Notes under the pieces: generated by a model | What the model was told of the DNA's origin: nothing | The model's input: the letters and a program-made list of their open reading frames with translations, nothing else | Database searches by the model: none | Shown: positions 2,158-62,716 of the stretch, piece by piece | Position numbering within the stretch: position 1 is the stretch's first letter | Layout of the letters: the number at the start of each line of letters is the position of its first letter | Made by a program: the position numbers and the translations under genes | Assembly: GCA_963707955.1 (NCBI GenBank) | Contig: OY970176.1 | Span: forward strand, 768,001-832,000 | DNA: 64,000 bases | From: Candidatus Bathyarchaeota archaeon | GTDB taxonomy: Archaea > Thermoproteota > Bathyarchaeia > Bathyarchaeales > Bathycorpusculaceae | Direction: 5' to 3'

Positions 2158-2338
2158 AAACAGATCCTGCGCCTCCAGTGATGAGTTTCATGTCAGCAAT
2201 ACAACTTTCTGTAATGCATGGGCGCCTCGAATTTAAGCAAAATAGGCGGCAGCAACGGGATCGTTTTTTTGGGGTTACGCATGAATTCCTAAGCATACAG
2301 GGTTGCAGAAGTAAGCCTGCGCGCGCTCGCCGAGCCAG

Positions 2339-2382
2339 AATATGCAGTTCGGTACTATAGCTATCAATCCATATCCATTTAA
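2339..2382 (+). promoter_or_regulatory. 44-bp conserved operator plus TATA-like element, copy A
   Basis: AATATG-N7-GTACTATAGC-N8-CATA-N4-TTTAA; aligns without gaps to copies at 19201, 23362 (rc) and 24843. Confidence 0.65.
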
Positions 2383-2430
2383 TTAGTACTCGAGGTCCAT
2401 TTTCTACGCTGAAGGAGAAAGGAGAGAGAG

Positions 2431-3126
2431 ATGCTTCGATCATCCGTGTCAGTAGTCATTCCCGCGTACAACGAACAGAAAACCATAGGACACGTGATCG
2501 AAGAAACCATGTCAGTAATGGACAGCCTAGGAGTCCCCTACGAGATCATCATTGTGAACGACGGGTCCACGGACAGAACAGGACAGATAGCTACGACGTA
2601 CAAAGCAACCGTCTTAACGAACGAAAGAAACCGAGGAAAAGGCCACGCCATCAGAAAGGGCTTCCAACAAGCACAGGGCGACATCGTGGTAACCTTAGAC
2701 GCTGACGGAGCGCACAGCCCCAAGGAGATACCAGACCTACTCAGTCCGCTGTCCAACGGCATGGACATCGTTGGAGGTTCAAGGTTCATGGGCAACAGCG
2801 GCGACTCAACGACCAGACTCAACCGTCTCGGCAACTTCGTCTTCAACATGGCCATCACAACGTTAACAGGAAAACGCGTAACAGACAGCCAAACAGGCTT
2901 CAGAGCCTTCAAAAAAGAAGCTCTCCAGAAGCTCAAATTAGCCTCTTTAGGCTACGAAATAGAAACCGAGATCACGGTCAAAGGGTTGAAGAACGGCTTC
3001 GCATTCGAAGAAAGACCGATAACCTGTAAGCAGAGACAATACAGCGTCTCAAAGCTGAGATTGCTCTCAGACGGAACCAAAATCCTCCAAGCAATCCTAA
3101 AAGCCAACATTGCAAAGATCGACTAG
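2431..3126 (+). CDS. GT2 glycosyltransferase (DPM1-like)
   Basis: VVIPAYNE, VNDGSTD, NRGKG, DADG, GSRF and DSQTGFRA motifs. Confidence 0.92.
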   Translation: MLRSSVSVVIPAYNEQKTIGHVIEETMSVMDSLGVPYEIIIVNDGSTDRTGQIATTYKATVLTNERNRGKGHAIRKGFQQAQGDIVVTLDADGAHSPKEIPDLLSPLSNGMDIVGGSRFMGNSGDSTTRLNRLGNFVFNMAITTLTGKRVTDSQTGFRAFKKEALQKLKLASLGYEIETEITVKGLKNGFAFEERPITCKQRQYSVSKLRLLSDGTKILQAILKANIAKID

Positions 3127-3394
3127 TGTTCGCCCAGACCCCGTACGTTTTGTTAAACCGCATTTGAATCATATGTTTGACCGGCGGGAGGGGCTGTCAG
3201 ATCACTCGCACAACGAAAAGCGCGGTACCGCCACACTCAACCCGCAGATCACATTTGGCTCCAAATAGAGGGGCCTACGCCATTGCACGCACACGCGCAC
3301 TGAAAGCGCGGGCGAGAACACCCTTCTCTCATCACCACATGTGCTTAAGTGAGCACGCTTCCGCTATAAGCAAGTTTAGGGGGTGAAGCTGTTT

Positions 3395-4966: not shown

Positions 4967-5297
4967 ACCAAGCTGAGCATCTACCATGGCGCGATCCAGA
5001 TACGGATAAGAATGTTGGAGCATGCGCCATAGAAAAAAGAGAGGTTTTGTGGGTGACATCTCCATTTGTCCCACGTTCAAATCCCAGTTACCCGTGCCCT
5101 CATAGGCTATAGTGTGAGTTCGCGTATAGATGCGAGCGCGCGCAAGTCGATTTTCAGGGCTTGCAGATTTCGTTCCTGGTGAGACTTGAACCCTTTTGGT
5201 TATCTGCCTACCGAATGTGGTTTTTTTACCGGAAAAGTTGGGTTGGGTTCCATTCAGATGTTTTCAGCGTTCTCTTGTTGAGTTCAAGTCGAAGCTT

Positions 5298-11337: not shown

Positions 11338-11338
11338 G

Positions 11339-24826: not shown

Positions 24827-24842
24827 AGACTTTAAGCCTCGG

Positions 24843-45535: not shown

Positions 45536-46033
45536 TCAATATGATTCTAGTAGTCCGAAGGTTTTTAAACGGTCTCTCAGATTTCTGATTCTGTCACTAG
45601 CTTCGGTAATATCTCCAAGTAGTCTTTCAAAGTTGCGGACGTTTAGGTTTATGAGCTCATGGAGGGCTACGGGGTTGTCTGGTAAATCGTACAAGCTTGG
45701 GCTGGTTCCAGCCTCTCTAGAAGCTTCAACAATCCACTCTTCGAGCCTTGGGCACAATATGAGTAAGTGATTGTTTAGCCATCTATATTGCAACAGTCTT
45801 ATCTTATGTGCCTCATCGATCTCAGTTGCTTGAAATTTCTTCAAGTCTGGCAATTGAAGGCTTCTGGGGTCTTCATCAACCATTCCCACCGAATTTTCGT
45901 AATTAGTATGTCTCACACCTCTAATCAGCTTCCTAACCACACCTGACTTGTTCCCAGCATGTTCAATCCTTTCTGTGGGAACACCCAAGATGCTGAGCAG
46001 TGTTAAGTCCGCTTTGCATTCCACGAAGAGCAT
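45536..46033 (-). CDS. TOPRIM-like protein partnered with the ATPase
   Basis: FVECKAD and MVDEDP (E...DxD); LEEWI motif. Confidence 0.65.
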   Translation of the reverse strand: MLFVECKADLTLLSILGVPTERIEHAGNKSGVVRKLIRGVRHTNYENSVGMVDEDPRSLQLPDLKKFQATEIDEAHKIRLLQYRWLNNHLLILCPRLEEWIVEASREAGTSPSLYDLPDNPVALHELINLNVRNFERLLGDITEASDRIRNLRDRLKTFGLLESY

Positions 46034-46038
46034 CTACT

Positions 46039-47049: not shown

Positions 47050-47321
47050 CTAGTTTTCAGCCTCTCTCGTTTAGAATAGTTGCTTCGGACCTAATATGAA
47101 GGTTTGTGTCGCTTGTAGATATGCTGTGTATTTCCGCGCACGCTCGCGCTAATACAAATCCACAGTGGTGCGTCGTAATTCTAGTCAAAGACACCAAAAG
47201 GTGAGTGCGCGCTTTAGCGTTTTCCAGTATCTTCATTCTCTTCGTCATTCTTATTACCGCTCCTCAGCTCCTAGAATCCCAGTGATGTTTAGGGCGCGCG
47301 CTTGAGTCTCAGAATGTCAAT

Positions 47322-48251: not shown

Positions 48252-48435
48252 GGTTTGACCAGCTCAGGCGCGCGCTAGAAATCTTCTCTTGCCATTTGTT
48301 GACCATAGGTCAGCAATGACTTAATAAAATCTACTGTGTTAGTAGCGCGCGCTTTAAGCTCCTAAGAGTTAACAAAACCTCCACCCGCTAAGTTTATGGG
48401 CTTGTCCGCGCGCTCGCTAGATATAGAGGAGTAAC

Positions 48436-50010: not shown

Positions 50011-50023
50011 CTTTAGCGCGCGG

Positions 50024-50197
50024 TTATTGAAGTTTTGCGCCACACTTTGGGCACTTAAGAGGATAGTTTTCTTTGCTTATCATTTTCAATCCACAGCCGA
50101 AGCAGATACAAATCTTGCACGTTGGGCAATAGTAGTTGCCGCCTTGAATGCGAGTGCCGCACATGCTGCAAAGCTTGGTTAAGCAGTCATCAGGCAT
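50024..50197 (-). CDS. 57-aa RING-like zinc-binding protein (absent from the ORF track)
   Basis: MPDDCLTKLCSMCGTRIQGGNYYCPTCKICICFGCGLKMISKENYPLKCPKCGAKLQ*; four CxxC pairs. Confidence 0.75.
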   Translation of the reverse strand: MPDDCLTKLCSMCGTRIQGGNYYCPTCKICICFGCGLKMISKENYPLKCPKCGAKLQ

Positions 50198-50420
50198 TTG
50201 TTACGCCCGGTGAAAGCAAGATTGGCTATATTGAAGAACGCATGGCTTGAAGGTTAAAGGCGGTTCGTTGATGCAACATTCTTGAGAAATGGTGAGAGTA
50301 GAGTAAAAGTGAACTACTTTCTAACTTGAATGAGTTTGTCTCTGACCGCCTCTGCGCGCGCTTGAGATTAAGATTCGGAATTCACAACCATATTATGTGT
50401 GTGGTCAGTAAACGCTAGGC

Positions 50421-51419
50421 ATGAAAACAGTCGCAACCATTACCATTGGGATTTTACTGGTTGCCGTCGGGGTGCTCGCAGGCTTTCTTGCTGCTCCAAT
50501 TTTCCAATCAAACACTTCGACATATACAGGTCCCGAGTACTTGATAATATCCAACATGGATGGTGTTGTCGGACCCGATGAATGGATTGCAGTGACAGTT
50601 AACAATACAGGGATTGCTGCGTCGACAATAGCCAAGGTCTTGGTGAACAACGTTACGCAGATGTCAGTCAACCCATCGCTTCCGCTGACAGTTGCAGAAG
50701 ACGGCGGCGTCGTCCTCAACATCACGATGAATGTTGCTGAAGAAAGTTATCAGATAGAGCTGCTAACATCGAGGGGAAATTCGTTTTCAATTTCCACTCA
50801 AGTCACTTCTGGCGTCATACTGACCCCGGCAAACGTCAATTTCTACGGAACCGCAAATGACAAAATAGATATTGACATAGAAAACACGGGAACTTCTGAC
50901 GCACACCTAATCCAGGTCTACGTTGGGACATCATCGTCAACGTTGCAGAATGAAACGAACTCATCTCTTCCGGTAACGTGCGCGGCAGGCCACGTAGTGA
51001 GAATTACGGTGGACTATAACTGGACGTCAGGCGGAACGTACTACTTCAAAGTCATAGCTCAAGAGCAGATCCTAGGACCATGGGCAGAGCAAGCACCAGT
51101 AACATACGACTTTATAGGAACCACATCTATAACAATCACCGACGTCAGTTTTACAGGAAACAGCGGCCAAGGCAACAACACGATCGTCCTAACTCTGAAG
51201 AACACTGGAACTGAGCAGGTGACTGTCGGCCAAATAAAAGTTAACAACATCATAGCATCCTTTGACACAACCAATGCGACATTACTTTCAGGAGCCAATA
51301 ATGTGTTGCTAACAGTCTACAACGTCGGTTGGTCAAATGGAAACCCGTACAAGATTGACTTGTTTGATGCTAGTGGTAACGGAGTGGGTTCCACTCAGCA
51401 GAACGCGCCTGGAGCATAG
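50421..51419 (+). CDS. Membrane-anchored surface protein with three pilin/archaellin-like Ig repeats
   Basis: N-terminal TM; repeated V.NTG...I..V.VN and Y.I...T..GN patterns. Confidence 0.75.
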   Translation: MKTVATITIGILLVAVGVLAGFLAAPIFQSNTSTYTGPEYLIISNMDGVVGPDEWIAVTVNNTGIAASTIAKVLVNNVTQMSVNPSLPLTVAEDGGVVLNITMNVAEESYQIELLTSRGNSFSISTQVTSGVILTPANVNFYGTANDKIDIDIENTGTSDAHLIQVYVGTSSSTLQNETNSSLPVTCAAGHVVRITVDYNWTSGGTYYFKVIAQEQILGPWAEQAPVTYDFIGTTSITITDVSFTGNSGQGNNTIVLTLKNTGTEQVTVGQIKVNNIIASFDTTNATLLSGANNVLLTVYNVGWSNGNPYKIDLFDASGNGVGSTQQNAPGA

Positions 51420-51663
51420 ACTTGGCATGAGTGTAGAAGACTACAGAAGGAAACTTTCAAGCGCGTCCTAATGGATTCGTCGTTCACGCGCGCGCTCGCA
51501 ATGGGCTCGACCATTGAGCAGTCCTATGGAGAATTGAGAAAACCAAGTATATAATATAGAATTGGTTTGCCCTGTTTTCCATAGGACAGTCTAAGCAGGC
51601 TAAGACGTTGATGCAAGGGCGTGTGCAAGAGAGCAAAATCGTTGCGTTCGCTCAGCGAGCGAT

Positions 51664-51777
51664 TTAGTATTCTTCCCTCTTCCAGATGTTGTACGGGCAC
51701 TGTCTCCAGCAGTACGTGCTGCCCTTGTAAATGCAACCCTGACATTCAAGTCTGTCAAACCGCCTACGCCTGCTCAT
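51664..51777 (-). CDS. 37-aa Cys-rich micro-protein
   Basis: MSRRRRFDRLECQGCIYKGSTYCWRQCPYNIWKREEY*; CCTTAAT upstream. Confidence 0.55.
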   Translation of the reverse strand: MSRRRRFDRLECQGCIYKGSTYCWRQCPYNIWKREEY

Positions 51778-51932
51778 AAACAGACTCTCAATACCCTAAT
51801 GAACTTCTTTCTCATTAAGGCTTAGATTTTGTCGGAGCGTGTAGTCCTGGCGCGCGCTCTGAATGGGAACGAAAACAACGGCGTAACTCATTTATTTCTC
51901 ATCACGCTTTTAACCCTTTTACTATTCGCGCG

Positions 51933-52424
51933 CTAGCTCCTTAACATTGCAGTTTGAGCGCCAGATTTTTCGATAGCCAAGACTAAGGCATACCCTATAA
52001 TGTTCATTGAGATTATTGAACCCAACAGGACTCCAATGAACCCTACCTCCAAAGGAACGCCGAAAAGCAAGGCCAAATAGGAACCAACGATGCCTGAGAC
52101 TATTATGTTCTGCGCAACTGTAGCAGCAAACCGAGAACCAGCGAAGTTTCTGGAGGCAATTCTCCAGCCGACGTACGCAGCAAGGAAGTTTGCTATTGAG
52201 CCTCCAATGATGTCGATGTAGCCTAGCCCGCCATATATATTTGCTACAATGTTCCCTAACGTCACTCCCAAGACTACGGGCATTCCGAACACAATGGATA
52301 GGGGGATCAAAGCATCTGCAACTCTCACCTGAAACAGCAGAAAACTTATGGGAGCAAGGAGAATGACACCGGCGGCATACAAAGCAGCGATGACACATCC
52401 TAATGTTATCTTTCTAGTTTCCAA
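51933..52424 (-). CDS. queT: QueT-family transporter
   Basis: IAALY...PISF..FQVRVADAL, GVTLG..AN and D...G motifs; GGGAGGTGG SD. Confidence 0.88.
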   Translation of the reverse strand: METRKITLGCVIAALYAAGVILLAPISFLLFQVRVADALIPLSIVFGMPVVLGVTLGNIVANIYGGLGYIDIIGGSIANFLAAYVGWRIASRNFAGSRFAATVAQNIIVSGIVGSYLALLFGVPLEVGFIGVLLGSIISMNIIGYALVLAIEKSGAQTAMLRS

Positions 52425-52487
52425 TCTACCACCTCCCGACCGGGGTTTCTAAAGCGGAACGTTGGGAGGCCCCACCACCCGCTAAAT
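52425..52487 (-). promoter_or_regulatory. Structured GC-rich 5' leader of queT (riboswitch-like candidate)
   Basis: AGCGG/CCGCT stem enclosing CCTCCC, which is complementary to the GGGAGG SD; CTTTATTT box at about 52509-52516. Confidence 0.4.
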
Positions 52488-52528
52488 AGGGCATTTTCAG
52501 TCTTCTACAAATAAAGCTTTGGCAGTCA

Positions 52529-52936
52529 TTACCTTACTTTGCTAAGCGAATCTATGAGTTCATCCATACTTTTGCAGATTTTAATCAGCGCAACTTCCAA
52601 CATAAGATTCACCTCTTCCATTTCTGAAAAGGTGCGGTAATCCGTCTTAAGCCCAACAATAGGCTTGCCCAACGCCGTGGCATAGCCCATTTCATATGCC
52701 ACACCCGCGTCGACTTCCACGCCGTCTAGGACTGCTGCTATCGCGTCGCTTGCCTTCAAGGCCGAGATGTCACCTTCGTAGATCCTCTTCTTCTCTTTGT
52801 GAGTGCCCTGCTGAATGAAGGGAGCTTCTTGGGCAAGCCAGACCTCAAACCCATTTTCTCTCAGTCTCTTGGCTATTTTGGAATTGAACTCTCGCTCAGC
52901 CTCGCTAAACAATGGTGCAGCAAGAAAAACTTTCAT
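52529..52936 (-). CDS. Nucleoside 2-deoxyribosyltransferase / N-glycosidase family
   Basis: FLAAPLF..AE, D...L..SD, DAGVAYEMGYA.ALGKP and NLML motifs. Confidence 0.88.
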   Translation of the reverse strand: MKVFLAAPLFSEAEREFNSKIAKRLRENGFEVWLAQEAPFIQQGTHKEKKRIYEGDISALKASDAIAAVLDGVEVDAGVAYEMGYATALGKPIVGLKTDYRTFSEMEEVNLMLEVALIKICKSMDELIDSLSKVR

Positions 52937-53065
52937 TTCTACAAGTCACCTCACTCTACATGCGTAGCAATGTACCTACGTACATAAGGATATAATGCAC
53001 GCGCTTTCAGCGATTAGAGAGACTGTTGCCGTTGTTCATTATAGTTGGGGCAAGGCGCGCGCGCT

Positions 53066-53945
53066 CTATTTCGTAAGAATGGGTTTAGCGATGTTTTCCA
53101 CGACTAAACGAGCCATCTTATCAATGTTGCTGAGGGTATCTGCTCCTAAGGATGCAAAGCTCTTCGGAATCATGTCAAGCAACCGCGTAGAATATTCTGT
53201 AGGAAGGTAGGAAAGGCTCTCAGCCAGAAGCCTCTTCATCTTCCCACATAATCTTTTATCAGACAGAAGAGGAGCGGCGCAGCCTGCGGGTTTTAGGCAC
53301 GAAACTAAGCAAAGAATCTCGGCGAGTGGTTTCTCTCTTGACACTTCCCACGAACGTTCGTCGCTTTCAGTAACTGTGAGCAAGTGCTTTGTAAAGGCTA
53401 ATTGGTCTTCAACGTAGCCTCGCCCGTAAAGGAGACGAGAGACCTCATAATCTTTCACCGCTATGGATATCAGGTAAAACAGGTTGGTTGCATATTGTCT
53501 TGAAACGTTGAAACGGCCAATAAAGTCTAAGAGTGGGAGTGGAAGCGGTAGAAGATAGTAGCTTGGGCTGCCGTGCAAAACTGAATGCCCAACCTCGTGT
53601 CGGATTCCTCCCACTTGAACCAGCTTCGGCAGCTTCCATTCTTTCGAGGCAGAGAATGATGCGGGAAATGCCTCTATAAGCGTCATGCATAGCAAAAAAC
53701 AGCTCGTCAAAGGATGACGAACTGACTCCAACTTCCTTAGATTCTTTTGCAGTGAAAGCCTCCATTGATGAGGAATACTTAAAAATGTATAAGTCTACTA
53801 GGGCAACCTCATGGGGCTCAAGTCTACTGTAGCATTCCTTCATGACCTTAATGATGTAATCTGCTTCTTCATCCTTGATGTTGCCAAACTTTGACATAAC
53901 GATTCTCGGGTCTTTCACAGTATTGGTTATATCACGATAAGCCAT
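53066..53945 (-). CDS. HExxH-containing hypothetical protein, frameshifted near 53638
   Basis: The 53445-53945 frame (...IILCLERM) continues as KLPKLVQVGGIRHEVGHSVLHG in the 53066 frame. Confidence 0.65.
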
Positions 53946-54067
53946 TTATGTTCCATCCGTGAATCTTCGTTGAATCTTTCTAGATACAGTGATAGTCAAA
54001 TCTATTCCAGATTTCAAACTCTTTTATAGATCTCGGCTCTCAGCTGTGATTAAAGTCTGGTGGTAAA

Positions 54068-54205
54068 ATGGTTAGAATACTGGGCATTGTTGGAAGCCCG
54101 AGGAAGGGTGGAAACACTGAGACTGCGGTAAGAGAGGCTTTGACGGCGGCTGAGCGTGAAGGAGCCGAAACAGAACTTTTGCAGCTTGTTGATTTTTGCC
54201 TTTGA
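54068..54205 (+). pseudogene. N-terminal fragment of an iron-sulfur flavoprotein / flavodoxin-family gene
   Basis: [45 protein letters not shown]; stops just before the expected Cys cluster. Confidence 0.78.
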
Positions 54206-54462
54206 TTGGTCTCTGCATCGATCGATCTGTTTTTTCTTCTGCTTTTTTTCTGCAGACTTCAGCGGGAGTTTTCCTTCAAAACCAATGTCTTTCTCTCCTT
54301 TCCCTCTGTATGTGCTCGTGTGCGCCTGCGTGCGCTAGTGAGGCTTACAAGGCTAACCTGGCTAATCAGGCTTATACAGCGCGCGCACGAAGAAAAAATA
54401 GGGAAAATTATGTGTATAACCATTCCCTCAATCAATAATGACTCAACAATTTAGTAATAGAG

Positions 54463-54543
54463 TTACTTCTTTTCCTCTGGCTTTTTCTCTGCGGGTTTCT
54501 TTTCCTCTTTTTTCTCTTCTTTCTTCTTTCGCTTCAAGGGCAC
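54463..54543 (-). CDS. 26-aa Lys/Glu-rich peptide
   Basis: GGGGGTGA SD then GTG; MPLKRKKKEEKKEEKKPAEKKPEEKK*. Confidence 0.5.
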   Translation of the reverse strand: MPLKRKKKEEKKEEKKPAEKKPEEKK

Positions 54544-54682
54544 GTCAATCACCCCCCGCTTATTCCTTTGATGCTTTCTTAAAAGGCCTTGGTTAGGAGA
54601 GCGCGCGTGGATTTTTCAGGAATCTCTCCTCTCTTAGTGCGCGCGAGCTGAAGGAGATACTCCTGAAAAGCATGCGCAGCTC

Positions 54683-54820
54683 CTAAACCTTCTTTCCATA
54701 TTCACGGAACTTTTTCCCGCAACACTCGTACTGCTTAACATGTATCTTTTTGTTCCTGCCCATATTCCACTCCTTTATCGGCGTTTCAACTTCTTTTCCA
54801 CAGGTCGGACACTTGGCCAT
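54683..54820 (-). CDS. 45-aa Cren7-like zinc-ribbon chromatin protein
   Basis: GGAGGTGA SD; MAKCPTCGKEVETPIKEWNMGRNKKIHVKQYECCGKKFREYGKKV* with the Cren7-like P.K.W...GK.FR pattern. Confidence 0.72.
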   Translation of the reverse strand: MAKCPTCGKEVETPIKEWNMGRNKKIHVKQYECCGKKFREYGKKV

Positions 54821-54892
54821 TTGTCTGTCACCTCCTTCAAAGGTTTTAAGATTAAAAAACAGGGTATTAAAAACAAGGCGTTATTTCCGCGT

Positions 54893-54997
54893 CTATAGGG
54901 CTCCGTAGAGCTTGGTTCCACACCTAATGCCCCATTCTTCTTCTTCCTCTGGTTCCTCTTCCTCTTCTTCTCCCTCTTCTTCTTCCTCTTCGCTCAT
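54893..54997 (-). CDS. 34-aa poly-Glu acidic peptide
   Basis: MSEEEEEEGEEEEEEPEEEEEWGIRCGTKLYGAL*; mixed GAA/GAG codons argue for coding. Confidence 0.5.
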   Translation of the reverse strand: MSEEEEEEGEEEEEEPEEEEEWGIRCGTKLYGAL

Positions 54998-55247
54998 AGC
55001 GTTGTGTCCCAAAATTAGCGCCCTTAGGTCAAGGCTATAGCGCTGTTAATAAGCGTGTTGATAGTCAAGCACGCTCCTTAAAAATACTATATACGAGGAT
55101 GCATAGCGCGCGCTAGCTTGTCCCTAAATTAGTTAATGCTTATTTTGGTACGTGGGGTCTCGTATTTTGTGGCTTACGTCCAAGCCTAGGAGGTGACGCG
55201 CGCGCCCTACCAATCTTCTTCCTCTAGTTAAAACTATAAGCCCACTT

Positions 55248-55844
55248 TTAAATGGCGTTCTTATATCCTTTCGCCACCAACCTTTTGTGGATGGAGTTCT
55301 TCAAAGCGCCCAATCCTGCTCCTGTCTTTGCGCTCACTGGGAATACGTGCTCTCCAACAGCAAATGGATAACCCTTGCCTATTTGATGTATGAACGCTTC
55401 ACTGTTGACCTTTAACTCCTCCTTATTCACCTTATCTATCTTGTTAGCCGCCACCAAAGGAAACTCACCTGAAGTCTCCGTCAAAAACTGAACCATCTCC
55501 ACGTCCACTGAGATAAAACCCTTCTTCTCCAAACGCCACGTTACCTCCGAGAACGTGGATATGTCTAAAACATGGACGGCCAAAGCTATGTTCTGAGCAT
55601 AGGACTCCAGAAACTCGATGATCTGATCATTTTTCTTATCCTCCAAACGTTTGGAAGCTCTCATCATCCTACCAAACCCTGGCATATCTACAAGCACCAA
55701 ATCGCCACTCAAGGGATATTTTGAAATCCGTCGCGTAGTTCCTGGACGTTTACCGACTGCCACATCCAAGCCTACGACTTCTCTGATGATGCTACTCTTG
55801 CCCGCATTAGGCCTTCCAGTGAAAACCAAATACCTCTCACGCAT
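55248..55844 (-). CDS. engB: EngB/YihA-family GTPase
   Basis: GRPNAGKSS, PGTTR, DMPGFG, NKID and SAK motifs. Confidence 0.9.
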   Translation of the reverse strand: MRERYLVFTGRPNAGKSSIIREVVGLDVAVGKRPGTTRRISKYPLSGDLVLVDMPGFGRMMRASKRLEDKKNDQIIEFLESYAQNIALAVHVLDISTFSEVTWRLEKKGFISVDVEMVQFLTETSGEFPLVAANKIDKVNKEELKVNSEAFIHQIGKGYPFAVGEHVFPVSAKTGAGLGALKNSIHKRLVAKGYKNAI

Positions 55845-56167
55845 ACTGAATATTACATAAGACGCAGTATACTTGAATGTATCCTAGCCCACAATTTCCG
55901 AGTTACAAAAACTACGGCAAACAGTTTGGTCTTTCTTTAACACAGCTCCATCTCAAGGTCTTTAATGAACGCTATGCAGTCTTTTCTTGGAATACTTGCT
56001 CCCCCTAGTATTTTTCTGTGCTTCAAACAGTCTCCCTGTCGAAGTTTAAAAGTCCGCAGAGAGCGCGCGCTATTTTTGCAGCAAGGAAACTAATCACCGA
56101 TGATGAGCCAGAACCTGACCCATCGGAAGGTTTATCCAAGTGTACAATGTAACCACCAGAGGTCTTA

Positions 56168-56914
56168 ATGCAGATACAAGAGATGCAAATTGAAGTCAAT
56201 AAGTTTTTAGAGTCTTTGAATGTTGACATGCGAGTTATCATTGTTACCAATTGTCGGGACGACATAGCAAAGGCTATCGGACTATATATTAACGACACGA
56301 TTCCTGTCGTGAATCTGAAAGTCAACGTAGCTTTCGGAAACGTGTCCGTAAACAAGGATTATTTGAACAGAACTCTAACCTACGATGAACAAAGGTTCAT
56401 GTTGGCACATGAAACTTCCCACATCTATCTTAATCATGTTGTACCTCGCGCTATTGATGGATTCATCGATGAACTCATAAGAAACTGCAACCGCGATGTT
56501 CACGCCTTTCTAAATGGGGCAAAAGTGTTTTTGTATCTACTCAATATCCCTCTCCCTTTGTCTGTCATCGCTAAAGAGCAAGAAATAGCTGCCGATGTCA
56601 GAGCAATATCTCTAACAGGAAATGAGAATGCTGCTATCAGTTGTTTAACCAAACTTGTCAATGGAAATCTAGATGACACCTCCCATACTTGGGAAGCACT
56701 CGGTGTCAAAATGCCCGTCATGACTATGAAAGAACGTATCCAAGAGATACAGCGAAGATTATCCAGTCTATGTCAATATGGCTCCAAACCATCTTCATGT
56801 CTGAAATCATCCGAAATTTCACAGGGAAAACCATTCGACGCAGACTTCACAGAACCTCAAAAAGCAATACCGCAAAAAATCAAATCATCACCCGACTTGC
56901 ACCACGAAGACTAA
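56168..56914 (+). CDS. M48-like zinc metallopeptidase
   Basis: LAHETSH, QEIAAD and a SH...ERI motif; the C-terminal tail may be read-through. Confidence 0.75.
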   Translation: MQIQEMQIEVNKFLESLNVDMRVIIVTNCRDDIAKAIGLYINDTIPVVNLKVNVAFGNVSVNKDYLNRTLTYDEQRFMLAHETSHIYLNHVVPRAIDGFIDELIRNCNRDVHAFLNGAKVFLYLLNIPLPLSVIAKEQEIAADVRAISLTGNENAAISCLTKLVNGNLDDTSHTWEALGVKMPVMTMKERIQEIQRRLSSLCQYGSKPSSCLKSSEISQGKPFDADFTEPQKAIPQKIKSSPDLHHED

Positions 56915-57154
56915 TCACCCGACGATAGACCAGAACCCAGAGCGCGCGCTAAGTTCGCTCAGTCTTCAACGCTCCACTGAATATATTTCTGATAGAAGCA
57001 CTAATCCTTTCTCCAAATATAAGTAGAGGACCATTAAAGTGACCCTGAAACTTAGCGCACGCTATCATTTGTAACAACTACTCGCGCTTTTGGAATGACC
57101 AGTGATGAGAGTTGAGTGTGCGAGGTGTGAAATTGGTCGAGCTGAAAAGAGCGT

Positions 57155-57412
57155 TTAAGTGCTAGTGACTATTTCTGCTCCTGCGGCTACAGGTCCTGGT
57201 GTCGTGATTTTGATTCTTAAATGGTCTCCGAGCTTTGCGTTACCAATGAAAACTGGGAAACCGTTGATTCTGGCTATGCCTTCCCCTTGAGGGCTTGTTT
57301 CGGTTATATCCACTTCGTATTCTTTTCCAGTCTCAACTGGGCAGTTTTCAATGCCTCTGCCACGTTTGCTCTTGGCATTTCTCGGGCTTCTTTTTCGCGG
57401 ACTCATCGGCAT
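57155..57412 (-). CDS. Single TRAM-domain RNA-binding protein
   Basis: PVETGKEYEVDI....GEGIARINGFPVFI..AKLGD. Confidence 0.88.
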   Translation of the reverse strand: MPMSPRKRSPRNAKSKRGRGIENCPVETGKEYEVDITETSPQGEGIARINGFPVFIGNAKLGDHLRIKITTPGPVAAGAEIVTST

Positions 57413-57668
57413 CTTCCTTTTTCTGCTTTTTTGATGATGTGATTATCGTCCCTCAGTGGCTTAAGTGTTCCGCATTTTACTGCTCGCGCTAACCCAATTG
57501 AAAGTGCGATAATCTATAGCCGCGCGCGCTACCTCTTTGTTGTCTCAAAACCCGAAACAAGCAAAGTCTGCCTATTTCTAACCTCTTAGTTCTCTCAAGA
57601 CTCTTTGCTATGGCAGTCTGAGCCCCATGGGTTTCATATAATAGGAATGGAAGAACAATAGTCGGAGT

Positions 57669-58256
57669 GTGGTTGCCGTGTCAGATGATGATTGGTCTGT
57701 AGCAGTTTTCAAATGTGCACCAGAGAATGTCAGAAGCGTTCTTCTTGAATTCTATGGTTTTTTGGTAGACCTTGTAGGGGTTAAGAATCTTCACTTTTTG
57801 GTCAGAGATCGCGTTGAAGACGAGGTTGTTGTCAGTTTTCGCGTGTTGACAGAAAAGAAGTACCACGAAGTTGTTAAGAGCAAGATGAACTACAAACTCG
57901 GAATTCTTGTTCCCGACAAGTTCGCAGTCAATCCTGACTCACAGAACCCGTTGAACAAATACGTTGCTTGGGGCGCCGAAAAAAGAATATCCAAATCGGG
58001 TCTTGACAAGTTTCCAGAATTCTGTAATCTTCTCAGCAAGATGAGTGGTTTGGTCATAGAGATGCTGAAGAACGACTATTTCGGTTCCACTGAGAGAGTT
58101 GAAATTGCTCATGTGATGTCTTGGATGCTTGGTTGTACTGAGTACGGGAAGATGAGCCCAACTCACTGGGAACTTGGGTATTATGACCGCATAGAAGACA
58201 AGTGTCGTCCATACCTGAGACAAAACTTTCCACAGACCCAGAAATCTGAAACATAG
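57669..58256 (+). CDS. Hypothetical protein
   Basis: 195-aa ORF with SD (GGAG) and normal codon usage; no family recognised. Confidence 0.7.
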   Translation: MVAVSDDDWSVAVFKCAPENVRSVLLEFYGFLVDLVGVKNLHFLVRDRVEDEVVVSFRVLTEKKYHEVVKSKMNYKLGILVPDKFAVNPDSQNPLNKYVAWGAEKRISKSGLDKFPEFCNLLSKMSGLVIEMLKNDYFGSTERVEIAHVMSWMLGCTEYGKMSPTHWELGYYDRIEDKCRPYLRQNFPQTQKSET

Positions 58257-58927
58257 CTTCTTGGACAATTGTGCGACGGCTCAGGATTCCAGCATTTTTT
58301 ACCCCTTTTTTCAGCTTTAATGAGGCCAGAAGTTCCGTAGAAGAGCACTATGCGAGGCTGATGCAGATCAATTTGCTTATCCAAGAATTTGTTTTTTATT
58401 TTTTGGCAATTATCCCAGACCTTTTTTCCATCGGCACCCATAACAAAGCCCATCCATGCCTTTCTTGTCGGACACTTTATAGCGTCTACAAAGCAAACAT
58501 CACCTGAACTAAAAGAGATGGGTTGACCTTCCACTTTCATTCCTTCAAGTAGTTTGACGAAGACGAGAAAGTAAGGATGCCACCTGCTTTTGGGTTCCCT
58601 AAAGTAGTTGCATTGTAAACGGAAAATCTCTTCAATATCGCTGTCTTTGAGTAGACTCCGGCTCGTTGCTCCGAACTTATCTAAAGATAGGCCAACGAGC
58701 GCATCTGCCCTGTCTGACCCATCAGGGTTAGTTGCAACCACCCAGATTTTCGCCTTTATAACATCACCAAAATTCCCAACAGGAATTGTTATGGGTAAAT
58801 ATTCGGTTGATGAAAGATTGCCTTTACCATTAACAAAATAATAGACTCCATCTGGGTCTCTGATCTTGCGACAATCTTCGCATTTGTAAATCTGAGAGTA
58901 TAACTCAATTGGAAATTGTCCATCCAA
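58181..58927 (-). CDS. Uracil-DNA glycosylase-superfamily-like protein (3' end uncertain)
   Basis: VVATNP, FVDAIKCPT and FLDKQIDLHQPRIVLFYG motifs; N-terminal CEDC. Confidence 0.6.
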   Translation of the reverse strand: MDGQFPIELYSQIYKCEDCRKIRDPDGVYYFVNGKGNLSSTEYLPITIPVGNFGDVIKAKIWVVATNPDGSDRADALVGLSLDKFGATSRSLLKDSDIEEIFRLQCNYFREPKSRWHPYFLVFVKLLEGMKVEGQPISFSSGDVCFVDAIKCPTRKAWMGFVMGADGKKVWDNCQKIKNKFLDKQIDLHQPRIVLFYGTSGLIKAEKRGKKCWNPEPSHNCPRSYVSDFWVCGKFCLRYGRHLSSMRS

Positions 58928-59162
58928 GTTACCACATCCGTCAGCCTTTTACCGTGAGATTTCTTTAATACCATCGAAATGCTATTCAGGTTTTTGGTTG
59001 TTGTCAAGTTCCTGAGGGGTTTTAGCGCGCGCAAGGCCTAATCCCTCCTTTTTTTGCGTCTTGGATGTATTGGAAGTGGTTGGATTTACCGTTGGGTTTT
59101 TATTAAAAATAGAACAACTACATTACCCACTGCTGTTGACGCCATCTGTGAAGGGAAAAACG

Positions 59163-60675
59163 ATGGTTGACCTCAGAGAACACGAACAAAAAACACTCTC
59201 AACCTTGGCCAAGCTAGGCGGAAAAACATCAGCTGAAAACTTGATAAGTCAAAGTGGACTCTCCGACGCTGCAGTGATGCGCTCAGCGTTAACGCTGCAG
59301 GACAAGAAACTGGTACAGATCAATGAAGAGGAAGAGACAATCGCGAGACTTAACGCGGAAGGAAAAATGTACGCAGCAAACGGACTGCCGGAAAGGCAAG
59401 TCATACGCGCTTTAAGCAGATTAGGCGGCAAAGCACCTCTTGGAGGAATCTTTGAGAAAGCTGAGCTTGGGAAGGAGACTTGTTCCTATCGCGTTAGGCT
59501 GGATTCAAAGAAAGAAATGGGCAACTCTGGACTCGAAAGCAAACACTCTGCAGTTGCAGGGAAAACAAGAAGAGGAGAACGATGAGAAACTCGTGAAGTT
59601 TTTGGCCGAACGGAAAGAAGCCAGAGTTGAAAATCTGAGTCCTGACCTTCAAGAAGCTTTTCGACTTCTGAAGAGGAGAAAACTCCTTGATGTCGAAGAG
59701 AAGACGAAGAGAATAATCGAATTGACAGAAGCGGGTAATGCCATAGTCAGGAGAGGTATGAAAGCTGCTGCGGAAGTGACGCAGCTCACCCCTCAACTCA
59801 TAATTACTGGTAAATGGCGGAAGGTAAGCCTTCAAAAGTACAACATACGAGCCCCAGTTGCAAAGACGTGGCCCGGCAAGAAGCATCCCTATCTCCAGTT
59901 CATCGACAGGGTGAAGGAAAAACTCATCAACCTAGGATTTGAAGAGATGACTGGCACGAACGTCGAAACGTCCTTCTTTAACTTCGATGCTCTGTACATG
60001 CCTCAGGACCATCCGGCCCGCGAGATCATGGACATATACCTGGTGAAGTCTCCAAAGTACGGCAGCATAGGCGCCCCGAAGCATGTCCTGCAAAACGTCA
60101 AGCAAACCCATGAGAACGGCTGGAAAACAGGCTCAACCGGGTGGCGGTACAGATACTCCATCAAAGATGCAAAACGTCTGATCCTGCGAGGTCATGGAAC
60201 TTGCCTCAGCGCCAGAACCCTTCTGAGCAAAGAATTACACATCCCAGGCCGGTATTTCTCGATCGCCCGCTGCTATAGACCAGACGTGCTTGACCAAACT
60301 CATCTCACCGAGTTCAACCAGGTTGAAGGCATCGTCGTTGACGAGAACCTGAACCTTCGAGACCTTTTGGGAATTCTGCTGACTTTCGCCACTGAAATAG
60401 CCGAGGCTGACAAAGTCAGGCTGAAGCCAGACTACTATCCATTCACAGAGCCCAGCGTAGAACTCAGCGCCTACAAGAAAGGATACGGATGGATCGAGTT
60501 CGGAGGCTCCGGCATCTTCAGGCCCGAAGTCACCCTGCCCCTGGGCATCAAGCTTCCTGTTATCGCGTGGGGTTTGGGTATAGACCGTTTGTTCATGATG
60601 AAGGCAGGAATAGACGACATACGCAGCATCTTCTCTAATGACCTGCTGTGGTTGAGGACCAAGGAGGTCGCATAG
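59163..60675 (+). CDS. pheS: Phenylalanyl-tRNA synthetase alpha subunit, one extra base near 59478
   Basis: N-terminal EG..Y...GLPER in one frame; GKKHP, FNFDAL..PQDHPAR, YPFTEPS and GSGIFRPE in the next. Confidence 0.93.
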
Positions 60676-60676
60676 C

Positions 60677-62371
60677 ATGCCCACCATAGATGTCGACTAC
60701 GCAGAATTCGAGAAACTGCTAGGGGCAGAGCTGCACAAAGACCCTGAAAAAATCAATGAAGTCTTAGCCTTAGCCAAGTGCGAAATGAAACTTTTCGATG
60801 AAAAATCAGGCGCGATGACCATTGAGGTCAAGGACACAAACCGAGCAGATCTGTGGAACATTGAAGGATTAGTCAGGACTCTGCGCTTGCTCTTAGGATT
60901 GGATAGAGGCTTGAAACGGTACAAGACAGTCAAAGAAATAGCAGACGTGTACGTTGACAAGAGATTAGCCAATATCAGACCGTACATAGGCTGTTCCATA
61001 ATCAAGAACCTCAAATTGACAGACCCGATGATTCGAGCAGTGATGCAGCTTCAGGACAAGCTGGATCACACTTATGGAAGAAACAGGCGCCGAATGTCCA
61101 TCGGCCTGTACAACTTTGACCTCATGACACCTCCATTCAGGTATACCGTTGCCAAGCCAACAGAAGTCAGTTTTGTGCCACTTGGCTTTGAGAAAGAGAT
61201 GAATCTGAAGGAGATTCTAAAGCAGCATCCTAAAGGGTTAGAGTACGGTTCGATCGTAACGGGAAACAGCGTCTACCCGATACTTCTTGACAGTGAGAAG
61301 AGGGTACTGTCATTCCCACCGATCATAAACTCAAACGATCTTGGAAGAGTGACCGAGGATACTAGGAACGTTCTTGTCGAAGTCACGGGCACGGTTCATG
61401 ACACTGTGCTCAACACGCTCAAGATAGTAACCTTGTCCCTGATTGACAGAGGAGGAAAGGCTTACTCCACCACGGTTCATTATCCGGATGACAGCTTGAC
61501 AGTTGTGACGCCGAGTTTTGAAACGGGGCAGATGGACCTGGACGTTGGATACGCCAACAAGGTACTAGGCCTTCAGCTGAAAGCCCGACGGATCGTTGAA
61601 CTACTTGAGAAAGCTGGCTTCGGAGTTGCAAGACTCGAACGGGACAAGATGACCGTGGAGATCCCTTGTTACCGAATTGACATAATGCATCCGATAGACC
61701 TGATTGAAGATGTTGCCATAGCCTATGGATATGATAATATCAAACCTTTCTGGCGCAAACTGTCGACGAGAGGTGGCGCCAAGCCATGGCAAGCCTTTTT
61801 TGACGTTGCCAGAGAGTTAATGGTGGGTCTGGGCTTCCAAGAAGTTCTCACGTTCAACATGACAAACCCAGAAGACTTGTTCACTAAAATGAACGTGAAG
61901 AAACAGAGAATAGTGGAGTTGGCGAACCCGAAGGTTCAAACGTTGACGTGCCTCAGAAACTGGATGCTGCCGAGCCTTCTGGAGTTCTTGAGCCACAACC
62001 TTCACATTGAATATCCCCAGAAAGTGTTTGAACTTGGCACAGTCACGGTTTTGGATGAGAAAGCAGAGACAAAAACGAGAGACGTACACACTCTTGCAGC
62101 GGTCATTTCCCACGCAAACGCGAGCTTCACGGAAACAAAGTCGGCTCTAGACGCGCTTCTCATGAACCTTGGTCTCCAATGGCAGATAAGAGAGACAGAG
62201 CATCCAAGCTTCATAGATGGAAGAGTGGGAACAGTCATCGTCAACAGAATAGAAGTCGGATTGCTGGGCGAAATCCATCCAAAAGTTCTAGAAACGTGGA
62301 CGCTTGAGAACCCCGTGGCTGTCTTCGAACTAAACATGGATAGGATAGGCAGAATCAGGCATCAATACTGA
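60677..62371 (+). CDS. pheT: Phenylalanyl-tRNA synthetase beta subunit
   Basis: MPTI, NRADL, QDKL..GRNR, SFPPIINS, YRIDIMH..D..ED and GEIHP motifs. Confidence 0.95.
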   Translation: MPTIDVDYAEFEKLLGAELHKDPEKINEVLALAKCEMKLFDEKSGAMTIEVKDTNRADLWNIEGLVRTLRLLLGLDRGLKRYKTVKEIADVYVDKRLANIRPYIGCSIIKNLKLTDPMIRAVMQLQDKLDHTYGRNRRRMSIGLYNFDLMTPPFRYTVAKPTEVSFVPLGFEKEMNLKEILKQHPKGLEYGSIVTGNSVYPILLDSEKRVLSFPPIINSNDLGRVTEDTRNVLVEVTGTVHDTVLNTLKIVTLSLIDRGGKAYSTTVHYPDDSLTVVTPSFETGQMDLDVGYANKVLGLQLKARRIVELLEKAGFGVARLERDKMTVEIPCYRIDIMHPIDLIEDVAIAYGYDNIKPFWRKLSTRGGAKPWQAFFDVARELMVGLGFQEVLTFNMTNPEDLFTKMNVKKQRIVELANPKVQTLTCLRNWMLPSLLEFLSHNLHIEYPQKVFELGTVTVLDEKAETKTRDVHTLAAVISHANASFTETKSALDALLMNLGLQWQIRETEHPSFIDGRVGTVIVNRIEVGLLGEIHPKVLETWTLENPVAVFELNMDRIGRIRHQY

Positions 62372-62716
62372 GGCAAGCACAATAACCTTTAACTTTCTTG
62401 ACACGCTTATTTCTGGTTGGCGATGAGACAGTTGAGCCATTCCTAATCCCGTCGATACATCCACGCAGACGGACCCAACAGAAGAGAGCAAGTTATGTGC
62501 TTGCCTATTCTTATGACGACGGGTTTACCCAAACGTGGGACACGACGGGCGCGGGCAAAATTCCCTCGACGGAGAGAGCTTAGCTTAGAGGAGCGCATCG
62601 CCCCACAATGAAGTTAAGTGTTAGGTTACGTGGGAGACACTTGCCCGCGACAAAACAACATTCAGAAACGTGCTCTATCGCGCGCGCTCGAGCGCATGGA
62701 GCAGGTTCGCGCGCGC

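Follow-up and report, generated by a model that had tools for sequence, protein, structure and literature searches.

A short palindrome of alternating G and C, (GC)4, marks gene-module junctions, breakpoints and strain-variable DNA in a genus of uncultured Bathyarchaeia, and lies at indel junctions to the base. Its abundance is restricted to that genus. We tentatively place first the explanation that illegitimate end joining left the motif behind as a plug or scar.

Abundance, form and range of the palindrome

We analyzed a 64,000-nucleotide stretch of one of these genomes (the window). A preliminary description of this DNA had counted about 28 (GC)4 sites by eye and estimated that fewer than one copy was expected. 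Both figures held. The 32 overlapping GCGCGCGC matches merge into 28 distinct tracts of alternating G and C, each 8-10 bp long, and 100 dinucleotide-preserving shuffles of the window gave an expectation of 0.66 matches (sd 0.87, largest 5), with none of the 100 reaching 32. The observation of an iterated motif is therefore confirmed. GC content is 43.5-49.2% per 4-kb bin in the window and 47.9% in the whole genome (G000; 2,346,764 bp), where GCGCGCGC occurs 464 times compared with 25-34 expected from Markov models of order 0-3. The genome holds 455 alternating-GC tracts of at least 8 nt, and its most frequent 8-mer is AGCGCGCG/CGCGCGCT (n = 577). On a crude ORF map (2,416 ORFs covering 84% of the genome), 351 of the 464 copies lie outside ORFs, 100 inside and 13 across an ORF end. 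The excess survived composition correction, with 351 copies in non-ORF DNA versus 2.4-76 expected (Markov order 0-3). Those window tracts that scored as intra-ORF lie in short, doubtful ORFs or in the final codons of a gene.

The genome-wide consensus is tA(GC)4Ta. Among 231 exact 8-mers, A precedes the core in 166 and T follows it in 162, and conservation ends at ±2. Non-ORF DNA has 218 tracts of 6 nt, 109 of 7, 213 of 8, 92 of 9 and 40 of 10, and none reaches 11 nt, whereas other dinucleotide alternations fall off geometrically with length, with 6-13 tracts at length 8. A 400-kb sample of a second genome of the genus, G009, had the same length distribution and flanks. All 11 members of the genus, counting G000, carry AGCGCGCGCT in 7-114 copies each, and 20 genomes of other genera from the same family and order carry 0-1 copies. 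The motif recurs in metagenome-assembled genomes from several other record series, and our literature search found no published description of it.

Within the window (tracts are given without strand), (GC)4 tracts occupy 2319-2326, 5136-5143 and 23419-23426, a (GC)5 tract 19299-19308 and a C(GC)4 tract 20878-20886. The (GC)4 tract at 21491-21498 lies near the end of a CopD-like ORF (20992-21576), and the (GC)5 tract at 22401-22410 lies in the final codons of a PadR-like ORF (22394-23317, minus strand). There is no perfect (GC)4 at 9695 or at 23595/23918, where the preliminary description had placed copies. A variable block at 38546-39782, for which we found no alignment to the related sequences L001 or L002, contains five tracts: (GC)4 at 38793-38800, C(GC)4 at 38867-38875, (GC)5 at 39172-39181, and (GC)4 at 39368-39375 and 39663-39670. 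The last of these had been reported at the 3' end of a tRNA-Trp, and it does lie 3 nt beyond the end of a CCA-anticodon tRNA with a long intron, read by eye at 39674-39823 on the minus strand and not called there by ARAGORN or Rfam. Homology to two other related sequences, L003 and L051, restarts at 39673, 3 nt from the same tract.

The densest region is a 15.2-kb strain-variable island (43882-59084) with 14 tracts between gene-sized units; the same locus measures ~140-150 bp in L002 and L003 and 2.7 kb in L001. Two (GC)4 tracts bracket a PLD-nuclease-like ORF (47322-48251, minus strand), one 21 nt from its 3' end (47294-47301) and one 17 nt upstream (48268-48275), and a (GC)5 tract at 53055-53064 adjoins another minus-strand ORF (53066-53731). 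Further (GC)4 tracts lie at 48345-48352, 50354-50361, 51850-51857, 54379-54386, 56063-56070, 56942-56949 and, 53 nt within the right edge of the island, 59025-59032; C(GC)4 tracts lie at 51487-51495, 55197-55205 and 57521-57529. The perfect 12-nt palindrome TAGCGCGCGCTA noted earlier is present at 55104-55115, and contigs of the runs X1 and X4 diverge from the window at 55104. The preliminary description had raised the worry that the sites are chimeric assembly joins. They are not: each of the 14 tracts between 43000 and 60500 is spanned by X1 contigs, and the spanning pieces differ by 0-2 letters each across their full length, although X1 may be the source sample and is thus an independent assembly rather than an independent sample.

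Rearrangement junctions between close relatives

We compared G000 with two relatives at ~92-95% identity, covering about half of G001 (1.16 Mb) and about a third of G007. Against G001, collinear gaps contained 110 of 162 tracts and aligned DNA 27, and the other 25 were no more than 5 bp from the edge of an alignment; the density of non-ORF tracts was 1.28 per kb in gaps and 0.23 per kb in aligned DNA. With 150-bp flanks, the share of positions at which homology broke was 61.5% for mapped tracts (64 of 104) and 31% for non-coding positions chosen at random (304 of 977). Among positions whose two flanks both mapped, 16 of 40 tracts and 14 of 673 controls had an indel of >30 bp precisely there. 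In the G007 comparison, the broken share was 74% at tracts and 34% at controls. Breakpoints between close relatives thus fall at the motif much more frequently than at random non-coding positions, as the preliminary description had proposed.

We next consider which allele carries the motif. Among 65 clean indels (short allele at most 30 bp, long allele at least 100 bp), the short allele had a perfect motif in 18, one with a single mismatch in 11, one with two mismatches in 5 and none in 31. The long alleles mostly lacked the motif, or half of it, at either end, and their deletion end points had no common sequence. A single site can exist in several states: at G000 position 1376924, one genome has the motif, another 9 unrelated bp and a third 2,563 bp, and elsewhere 6-18 unrelated bp stand in its place.

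Five events could be polarized: three deletions, one of them weakly, and two insertions. Five genomes (G001, G007, G003, G009 and G002) have all 295 aa of one gene; in G000 only residues 1-87/105 are left, stop codons are present, and the relic runs up to a motif (2223455). Similarly, a DUF996 gene crosses one junction in G001, while its last 48 codons alone are left in G000, beside the motif. In both cases the motif-bearing allele is a gene-truncating deletion. A third case is weaker: the motif stands in place of a UbiA-family gene in G000 and G007, and a weak G005 match across the junction hints that the gene is ancestral. The two insertions are one of 15 bp in G001, which G000 and G007 lack, and one of 10 bp in the window, where it made the C(GC)4 tract at 62679-62687 and is absent from L001, L002 and L003. 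At the neighboring C(GC)4 tract (62708-62716), L003 has a shorter GC run, L002 a version with two substitutions and L001 a 13-bp insertion. In these polarized cases the motif allele is a derived deletion or a de novo insertion of 10-15 bp, to which a scar or filler is better suited than a recombination site. The preliminary description had read the motifs as crossover sites; as markers of module junctions and breakpoints they stand, but a crossover role is less easily reconciled with long alleles that are mostly motif-free and polarized motif alleles that are derived.

Function, methylation and transposition

A palindrome that is intergenic and often lies directly beyond stop codons (of 177 tracts in tandem spacers, 8 have the upstream stop no more than 5 bp away, and none has the downstream start that close) could be a functional cis-element, such as a transcription terminator, an insulator or a binding site for a nucleoid or regulatory protein. 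The terminator and binding-site options had been raised for this DNA before, and we now consider them very improbable. Tract density is similar in tandem, convergent and divergent spacers (0.93, 1.17 and 0.83 per kb), and core divergence in three genome pairs (0.088, 0.176 and 0.068) keeps pace with that of the flanks (0.079, 0.106 and 0.133). The motif therefore evolves no more slowly than its surroundings and has no preference for gene orientation. Furthermore, its density in non-coding DNA is 5.6-fold higher where the sequence varies between strains than where it is conserved, orthologous spacers in close relatives often lack it entirely, and archaeal termination depends on T-runs.

The preliminary description had also suggested a methylation-linked mutational drive in unselected DNA. 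In the form considered here, a substitution drive linked to methylation or repair would turn near-cognate words there into runs of GCGC. GCGC and CGCG are indeed 2.3-2.5 times denser outside than inside ORFs, 6-mer counts predict the 8-mer count at Markov order 5-6, and the genome has five N6/N4-methyltransferase loci. However, G000 has no match to C5 methyltransferase (PF00145) or Vsr (PF03852). At internal positions of the core, transition neighbors number 26-33 each and transversion neighbors 9-21 each, an excess that is the pattern of decay rather than of consumption by a drive. New copies come from indels and not from substitutions, as 8-15-bp insertions and at deletion junctions, and a length mode at 8 with a maximum of 10 is a misfit. 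We regard such a drive as scarcely credible.

A third possibility is that solo motifs are footprints of cut-and-paste transposons, or are themselves minimal mobile palindromes, with GC-alternating tips or a GCGC target duplication such that excision would leave (GC)4. An IS5-like element (DUF772 plus DDE_Tnp_1; G000 ~389082-390165) and MITEs of ~163 and ~190 bp sit between (T)AGCGCGC and GCGCGCT(A); a terminal inverted repeat of this family, GCGCATGCTTGTTCC, lies in the window at 26270-26284 on the minus strand (G000 794270-794284). Filled alleles have the form (GC)3-element-(GC)3 and empty alleles (GC)4, and of the empty alleles at seven polymorphic sites, 4 were perfect tracts and the other 3 were tracts of 7 nt or with one mismatch. 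Two de novo insertions have flanking duplications of 5 bp (TATTA/TATTT) and 3 bp (TCG). Despite this association, we judge a transposon origin distinctly unlikely. Transposon ends number 39 in G000, 73 in G001, 24 in G003 and 10 in G007, but only 1, 0 and 2 in the motif-rich G009, G004 and G008, and no sequence beside the GC tracts recurs more than twice in the 400-kb G009 sample. Of the 534 sequences that flank 8-nt tracts, just one starts with the terminal repeat, and there is no clear excess of direct repeats on the two sides of the 455 tracts (k = 3, 15 versus 9.2 ± 2.8; k = 4, 5 versus 2.3; k = 5, 1 versus 0.6). Excision that kept both duplications would yield (GC)6, which is never seen, and a transposon origin does not account for cases in which kilobases of native genes have given way to a motif. 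Finally, at G000 1559001 both relatives have an empty (GC)4, indicating that the element entered a pre-existing motif. The IS5-like element and its MITEs use the motif center as a target and are secondary to it.

Scar or cause of rearrangement

Two readings give the motif a direct part in rearrangement. According to the one that we tentatively prefer, it is a junction plug: tA(GC)4Ta would be a short, self-complementary filler at the join of two DNA ends without shared homology, whether from deletion, capture of foreign DNA or plain resealing of a break. Plugs would persist only where harmless and so pile up in spacers, gene relics, strain-variable islands and past stop codons. A finished plug would have no detectable function and be eroded by ordinary substitutions. 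The 31 of 65 clean indels without a motif count against this reading, as do the strong A...T flanks, for which simple pairing of GC tails does not account. In a two-step version that fits the data like a one-step filler, the motif may have been inserted first, with deletions later spreading from it.

The joiner would be the Ku, LigD primase-polymerase and ligase-phosphoesterase operon of the genus. G000 has it complete (LigD primase-polymerase, Ku, and a ligase fused to a 3'-phosphoesterase). Self-complementary GC tails could be made or copied at the ends and then pair, and 8-10 G:C base pairs may be stable enough for sealing, which would account for the length mode of 8 and the maximum of 10. 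We infer this chemistry because, to our knowledge, no known enzyme makes a constant GC palindrome at junctions. Ku was found in G000 and 7 of the other 10 genomes from its genus, compared with 1 of 20 from outside; the three genomes of the genus in which it was not found are 65-89% complete, and one has a primase-polymerase fragment. Motif-rich G033 (121 copies) has both Ku and primase-polymerase. G016 also has both, with only 1 copy of the 10-mer, and neither was found in G035 (69 copies), a possibly incomplete genome. The ratio of perfect copies to transition neighbors is 0.61 in G035, but only 0.71 in the sample of Ku-bearing G007. Thus, the operon tracks the motif with exceptions, is insufficient for it and not clearly necessary, and since related genomes are not independent the correlation is weak evidence.

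Alternatively, the motif could be the cause: DNA would break at the palindrome, either cut by a nuclease or recombinase peculiar to the genus or through a non-B structure that the GC run adopts, and repair would then delete, replace or insert adjacent DNA, in essence the earlier crossover site. Sites with repeated events, such as the three states at 1376924 and the 6-18-bp replacements, are consistent with this idea, and homology on one flank only is twice as frequent at tracts as at controls. An IS5-like transposase recognizes the motif site, almost every spacer between gene-sized units in the window island has one or two copies, and long CG repeats are reported to induce breaks and large deletions. 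Against it, long-allele ends lack motifs and half-sites, deletion end points share no sequence, no candidate enzyme was found, and 4-5 GC units are short for Z-DNA. In addition, in the two polarized insertions the motif arrives as 10-15 bp where relatives have nothing, so its origin would still need explanation. We hold a causal role to be possible but rather doubtful.

A junction plug, too, would stay a weak point, prone to repeated indels or replacement by other sequence, and the motif center is the target at which IS5-family elements and MITEs duplicate GCGC. Collectively, these observations suggest that in this genus the motif is either left behind by genome rearrangement as a scar or sets it off.

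Abundance, form and placement of the palindrome

Across the 64-kb window we counted 32 matches to GCGCGCGC, overlaps included, compared with a mean of 0.66 and a maximum of 5 in 100 dinucleotide-preserving shuffles. These matches merge into 28 separate alternating-GC tracts of 8-10 nt each, one of which is a perfect TAGCGCGCGCTA at 55104-55115; the preliminary description had arrived at about 28 sites by eye and had singled out the same 12-mer, and both observations held. In the whole genome (G000, a single contig of 2,346,764 bp with 47.9% G+C, in which the window occupies bases 768001-832000), GCGCGCGC occurs 464 times versus 25-34 expected under Markov models of order 0-3, so the excess persists after correction for composition. 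Similarly, 351 copies were observed in non-ORF DNA versus 2.4-76 expected from the same range of models, and AGCGCGCG/CGCGCGCT is the top 8-mer of the genome (n=577). The concern that the sites are chimeric assembly joins was not borne out: contigs of metagenome run X1, which may be the source sample, span 14 of the 14 tracts between window positions 43000 and 60500, with each spanning piece differing by 0-2 letters, and the motif is also present in assemblies from several other record series. Among the matches listed, contigs of runs X1, X3 and X4 also diverge into unlike sequence at, or no more than 7 nt from, GC tracts (window 55104, 54393 and 56954), which points to alternative junctions among strains of the population.

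The conserved unit is tA(GC)4Ta. Among 231 exact 8-mer tracts, A precedes the core in 166 and T follows it in 162, and nothing is conserved past 2 nt outside the 8-nt core. The motif is thus not the tip of a longer repeat, and a longer repeat or MITE around it can be ruled out. The only recurrent flank was the terminal repeat of an IS/MITE family (see below), found in 32 of 696 flanks of 6-nt tracts and in 1 of 534 flanks of 8-nt tracts. In non-ORF DNA there are 218, 109, 213, 92 and 40 tracts of 6, 7, 8, 9 and 10 nt, respectively, and none longer, whereas other dinucleotide alternations drop geometrically, to 6-13 tracts at length 8. Microsatellite slippage, as an account of the alternating core, is rejected on the length mode at 8 nt and the lack of any tract of at least 11 nt outside ORFs.

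We then placed the 464 matches on a crude ORF map (greedy ORFs of at least 80 aa; n=2,416, covering 84% of the genome): 351 fall outside ORFs, 100 within them and 13 across one of their ends, making the motif about 19-fold denser outside ORFs than inside. Tracts are clustered along the chromosome (index of dispersion 3.1 in 20-kb bins), and 2 of the ten tract-richest bins fall in the window. Also in the window, GC tracts are interspersed among three paralogous ORFs with an N-terminal PadR domain (18277-19146 on the plus strand, 22394-23317 and 23948-24973 on the minus strand), two of which have a weak methyltransferase-domain match as well.

A terminator or protein-binding signal had been offered in the preliminary description as one explanation of the motif. 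In tandem spacers, 8 of 177 tracts are no more than 5 bp from the upstream stop codon and 0 of 177 that close to the downstream start, and density per kb is 1.17 in convergent, 0.93 in tandem and 0.83 in divergent spacers. At sites of conserved length the core differed by 0.088, 0.176 and 0.068 in three genome pairs and the flanks (20+20 nt) by 0.079, 0.106 and 0.133, the core values being somewhat inflated because sites were picked as perfect in one genome. One-off variants of the motif are mostly transitions, which is a pattern of decay. This pattern and the indifference to gene orientation argue against a terminator or binding site, and a promoter or terminator role is rejected on the spacer densities. 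The same description had proposed a methylation-linked mutational drive. G000 does encode five N6/N4-methyltransferase loci; neither C5 methyltransferase (PF00145) nor Vsr (PF03852) was matched in this genome. With both families missing from the matches and transition neighbours of the motif enriched rather than depleted, a word bias driven by methylation or very-short-patch repair is not supported.

Homology breaks and indel alleles at GC tracts

Loci related to the window in G001 (L001), in G007 (L002) and at L003 align to it with 91-95% identity, and the alignment is broken at two places. The first, 43882-59084, spans 15.2 kb with 14 tracts; L001 has 2.7 kb in its place, and L002 and L003 have about 140-150 bp. 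This variable island includes an ORF for a PLD-family, NgoFVII-like nuclease (47322-48251, minus strand) flanked on its two sides by GC tracts, at distances of 21 and 17 nt; its neighbour at 48436-50010 had zero Pfam matches. The second, 38546-39782 (5 tracts), is unaligned, and homology with L003 and the related locus L051 restarts at 39673, three bases off the tract at 39663-39670. Next to this point lies an apparent tRNA-Trp with anticodon CCA and a long intron (39674-39823, minus strand), adjoining a 5S rRNA gene (39971-40090); the tRNA was called neither by ARAGORN nor by Rfam, at the gathering threshold or at E values up to 1.

Genome-wide comparison covered 1.16 Mb of G001 and 0.80 Mb of G007. 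The part of G000 comparable with G001 holds 162 tracts, of which 110 are in collinear gaps, 25 within 5 bp of an alignment edge and 27 in aligned DNA. Restricted to non-ORF DNA, tract density was 1.28 per kb in gaps versus 0.23 per kb in aligned sequence, and several alignments stop exactly on a tract's first or last base. We also placed the 150-bp flanks of every tract on G001, with 3,000 random non-coding positions as the control. Homology broke at the site for 64 of 104 mapped tracts (61.5%) versus 304 of 977 mapped random positions (31%); where both flanks mapped, an indel of more than 30 bp fell exactly at the site in 16 of 40 cases for tracts versus 14 of 673 for random positions. Against G007, breaks occurred at 74% of tracts and 34% of random positions.

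Next, we analyzed clean indels, defined as a short allele of at most 30 bp opposite a long allele of at least 100 bp. Among 65 such indels between G000 and G001, the short allele carried a perfect tract in 18, a one-mismatch tract in 11, a two-mismatch tract in 5 and none in 31; the motif therefore stands on the empty side in 28% of cases, or 45% with one-mismatch copies. In the motif-bearing class the short allele is often only A(GC)3-4T between conserved flanks, sometimes with 2-3 nt common to a flank. The corresponding long alleles measure 0.16-2.6 kb, in many cases amount to one or two complete ORFs, and usually have no motif at either end. The motif-free class takes in two other kinds of event. 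Those with a 9-bp overlap, of which six indels of 1.5-6.9 kb were seen, probably stem from a different IS family that duplicates 9 bp. Those with 17-57-bp overlaps, seen at three insertions of 12.6-38 kb, are probably elements integrated at integrase att sites; in one of them (G000 1318920-1332231) a GC tract adjoins the right att copy.

The best-supported account of these alleles sees the palindrome as a plug or scar where non-homologous DNA was joined. The preliminary description had seen the tracts as marking breakpoints and had taken them for crossover sites. Its first claim agrees with the mapped breaks; its second does not fit the long alleles, most of which had no motif at either end when checked for site-specific recombination. 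Furthermore, in 140 gaps there were zero cases of a long allele with tracts at both edges opposite a motif-free short allele. In the main rival account, the motif is itself the place where DNA breaks. A two-step history is also possible, with insertion of the motif followed by deletions that extended outward from it.

Several individual loci bear on polarity. A gene for a 295-aa protein is full length in G001, G007 (79% identity) and three further related genomes (G002, G003 and G009). G000 retains a relic of it, residues 1-87 or 105 with stop codons, that ends at the motif at 2223455-2223462; the event is a deletion of 1,469 bp whose junction carries the motif. Similarly, a DUF996 gene crosses the junction in G001 (domain residues 2-141 of 167), and G000 keeps its last 48 codons beside the motif at 2174899. 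A UbiA-family gene of G001 has the motif in its place in both G000 and G007, and a weak match in G005 (E 1.9e-5) crosses the left junction of this gene, which hints that the gene may be ancestral. Small insertions can be polarised as well. In the conserved spacer at 62.6 kb of the window, the tract at 62679 came with a 10-bp insertion that none of L001, L002 and L003 shares. Elsewhere, a polarised gain of 15 bp in G001 left TATTA-(GC)5-TATTT where G000 (TGTTT) and G007 (TATTT) have a single 5-mer. At some sites there are three states in three genomes, or 6-18 unrelated bp stand in the motif's place.

Mobile elements at the motif

An IS5-like family also uses these sites. The IS is about 1.08 kb (G000 ~389082-390165; L166:82-1165), and its transposase, which has DUF772 and DDE_Tnp_1 domains, is divided between two ORFs. 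Related MITEs, about 163 or 190 bp long (for example, G000 123076-123274 and 626576-626774) have the same terminal repeat, ATGCNTGTTCCTAAATTC, which is found in the window at 26270-26284. All are bordered by (T)AGCGCGC ... GCGCGCT(A). At seven polymorphic IS/MITE copies, the empty allele was a perfect tract in four and a 7-nt or one-mismatch tract in three, indicating that the elements insert at the motif centre and duplicate GCGC; six or seven further copies were uninformative, as homology stops before the flank. At G000 1559001, both relatives have an empty site. Here, a 1.75-kb segment (1559003-1560752; L165) lies between terminal repeats of the same type and encodes a MEDS-domain regulator as well as a small ORF that is zinc-finger-like; G001 and G007 lack the segment and have the empty motif instead. 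With these genes in place of a transposase, the segment looks like a non-autonomous element carrying cargo. Near the right end of the window, about 105 bp (62896-63000) are missing at this place in L001 and L002 and have copies elsewhere in G000 and G001, several of them inside ~190-bp MITEs; this insertion has no GC flanks.

The borders of these elements raise the possibility that transposition is the general source of the motif. Across the genus, a genome has between 0 and 73 element ends, with 39 in G000, 73 in G001, 24 in G003 and 10 in G007. The element-poor genomes G009, G004 and G008 have 1, 0 and 2 ends, respectively, and nonetheless contain 82, 39 and 56 motif 10-mers. In 400 kb of G009, no sequence beside GC tracts recurred more than twice. 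Direct repeats of 2-7 nt around 455 tracts were not clearly above shuffled pairs, a TA duplication being indistinguishable from the palindromic flank. The IS and MITEs are therefore rejected as the general source of the motif.

Known systems and the end-joining machinery

HIP1 (GCGATCGC), which occurs inside genes in cyanobacteria, resembles the present motif in several respects. It is described as a hyper-abundant, lineage-specific, 8-bp G+C-rich palindrome with palindromic flanks to 10-12 nt and common one-off variants (PMC4390886; PMC5861425), tied to cognate methyltransferases that recognise internal sequences (PMC4390886). Over-representation after composition correction likewise characterises the archaeal motif. 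Unlike HIP1, however, the latter is ~19-fold denser outside ORFs, lies at variable DNA and indel junctions and has no C5 methyltransferase match; rather than being spread over coding and non-coding DNA under selection, 351 of 464 copies are outside ORFs and the core diverges as its flanks do.

REP palindromes are 20-40 nt long and imperfect, and serve as insertion sites for IS elements such as IS1397 and IS621. REP/BIME sequences are also plentiful extragenic palindromes of spacers, described as linked to RAYT tyrosine transposases (PMC2817692). By contrast, the present unit is a perfect palindrome of 8-12 nt with copies at deletion junctions, and instead of a conserved head or flank its conservation stops 2 nt outside the core. 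GC clusters of yeast and fungal mitochondria measure tens of bp and are associated with deletion hot spots. Two reports describe them as short G+C-rich palindromes, inserted in non-coding DNA, polymorphic between strains and regarded as mobile (PMC4478555; PMC7218506), all of which recalls the present motif; they are, however, longer and belong to organelle genomes, whereas the unit here is 8-10 bp and lies in a cellular archaeal chromosome.

Filler DNA and templated insertions of end joining are closer in context, with deletions at non-homologous junctions, small insertions and 1-3 nt of microhomology; the variable short duplications, too, are expected from fill-in of staggered ends. Gap filling, extension of ends and annealing at microhomologies are reported for archaeal NHEJ polymerases and the replicative primase (PMC4797286; PMC12019639). 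The fillers described so far either vary or are copies of sequence close by, whereas the putative filler here would be constant, palindromic and common to hundreds of junctions. Neisseria has short palindromic-ended repeats (dRS3/NIME, 'minimal mobile elements'), 20-bp units with a variable core, that border strain-variable cassettes and synteny breaks and are targets of mobile elements. The present motif is like them in both position and use as a target; to our knowledge, dRS3/NIME repeats have not been reported in place of deleted DNA. In the literature outside supplementary files (where k-mer tables could bear on this), we found no account of this motif in archaea, as the preliminary description had supposed, or of a constant palindromic filler.

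The motif is narrowly distributed. AGCGCGCGCT has 7-114 copies in 11 of 11 genomes of the window's genus, G000 included, and 0-1 in each of 20 genomes from other genera of the same family and order. Among genomes reached through related loci, G033 has 121 copies, G035 69 and three more 0-1. One genus holds hundreds of alternating G-C runs, against a general suppression of such runs in prokaryotes reported by a survey (PMC4060949).

In agreement with a junction scar, the motif stands at non-homologous junctions, of deletions and insertions alike, with little or no homology between end points, and G000 encodes a complete end-joining operon (957178-960233; L170:7178-10233). Its genes specify a LigD primase-polymerase, Ku and a fusion of an ATP-dependent ligase with a 3'-phosphoesterase, and a DUF72 gene comes next. 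Few archaea have Ku: one count in OrthoDB gave 19 archaeal sequences (PMC11936186). Here it was found in G000, in 7 of 10 further genomes of the genus and in 1 of 20 genomes outside it; the three members of the genus with no match are 65-89% complete, and one of these (G002) has a primase-polymerase fragment. G033 has Ku and primase-polymerase along with the motif. G016, however, has both proteins but no motif (AGCGCGCGCT 0-1), and in G035 the motif is present, yet neither protein was found; Ku is therefore ruled out as a strict correlate. The correlation across genomes is suggestive, confounded by kinship and not free of exceptions.

On the plug or scar account, the palindrome would be made during the joining of ends after deletion, capture or resealing, perhaps by the Ku/LigD system through pairing of self-complementary GC tails. 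Once made, it would be neutral, liable to repeat hits and a target of the IS5-like family. A more specific and rather doubtful proposal is that broken ends are joined in this genus by means of a sequence-specific adaptor: A(GC)nT tails, made or copied by Ku/LigD-type machinery or by a partner enzyme, would be paired end to end and sealed, so that every illegitimate junction is stamped and the stamp in turn seeds breaks and hosts transposons. If so, the genome would keep a legible record of the DNA it had deleted, the genes it had captured and the breaks it had resealed. If the motif is a break site, it would be a recombination hot spot of a new kind, and one that shapes the accessory genome in a lineage of archaea that is abundant and uncultured. 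A repair scar, on the other hand, would be the first sequence tag of natural origin known to mark illegitimate joining in a cellular genome, would allow gene gain and loss to be read from one genome, and would point to a new activity of the rare archaeal end-joining system.
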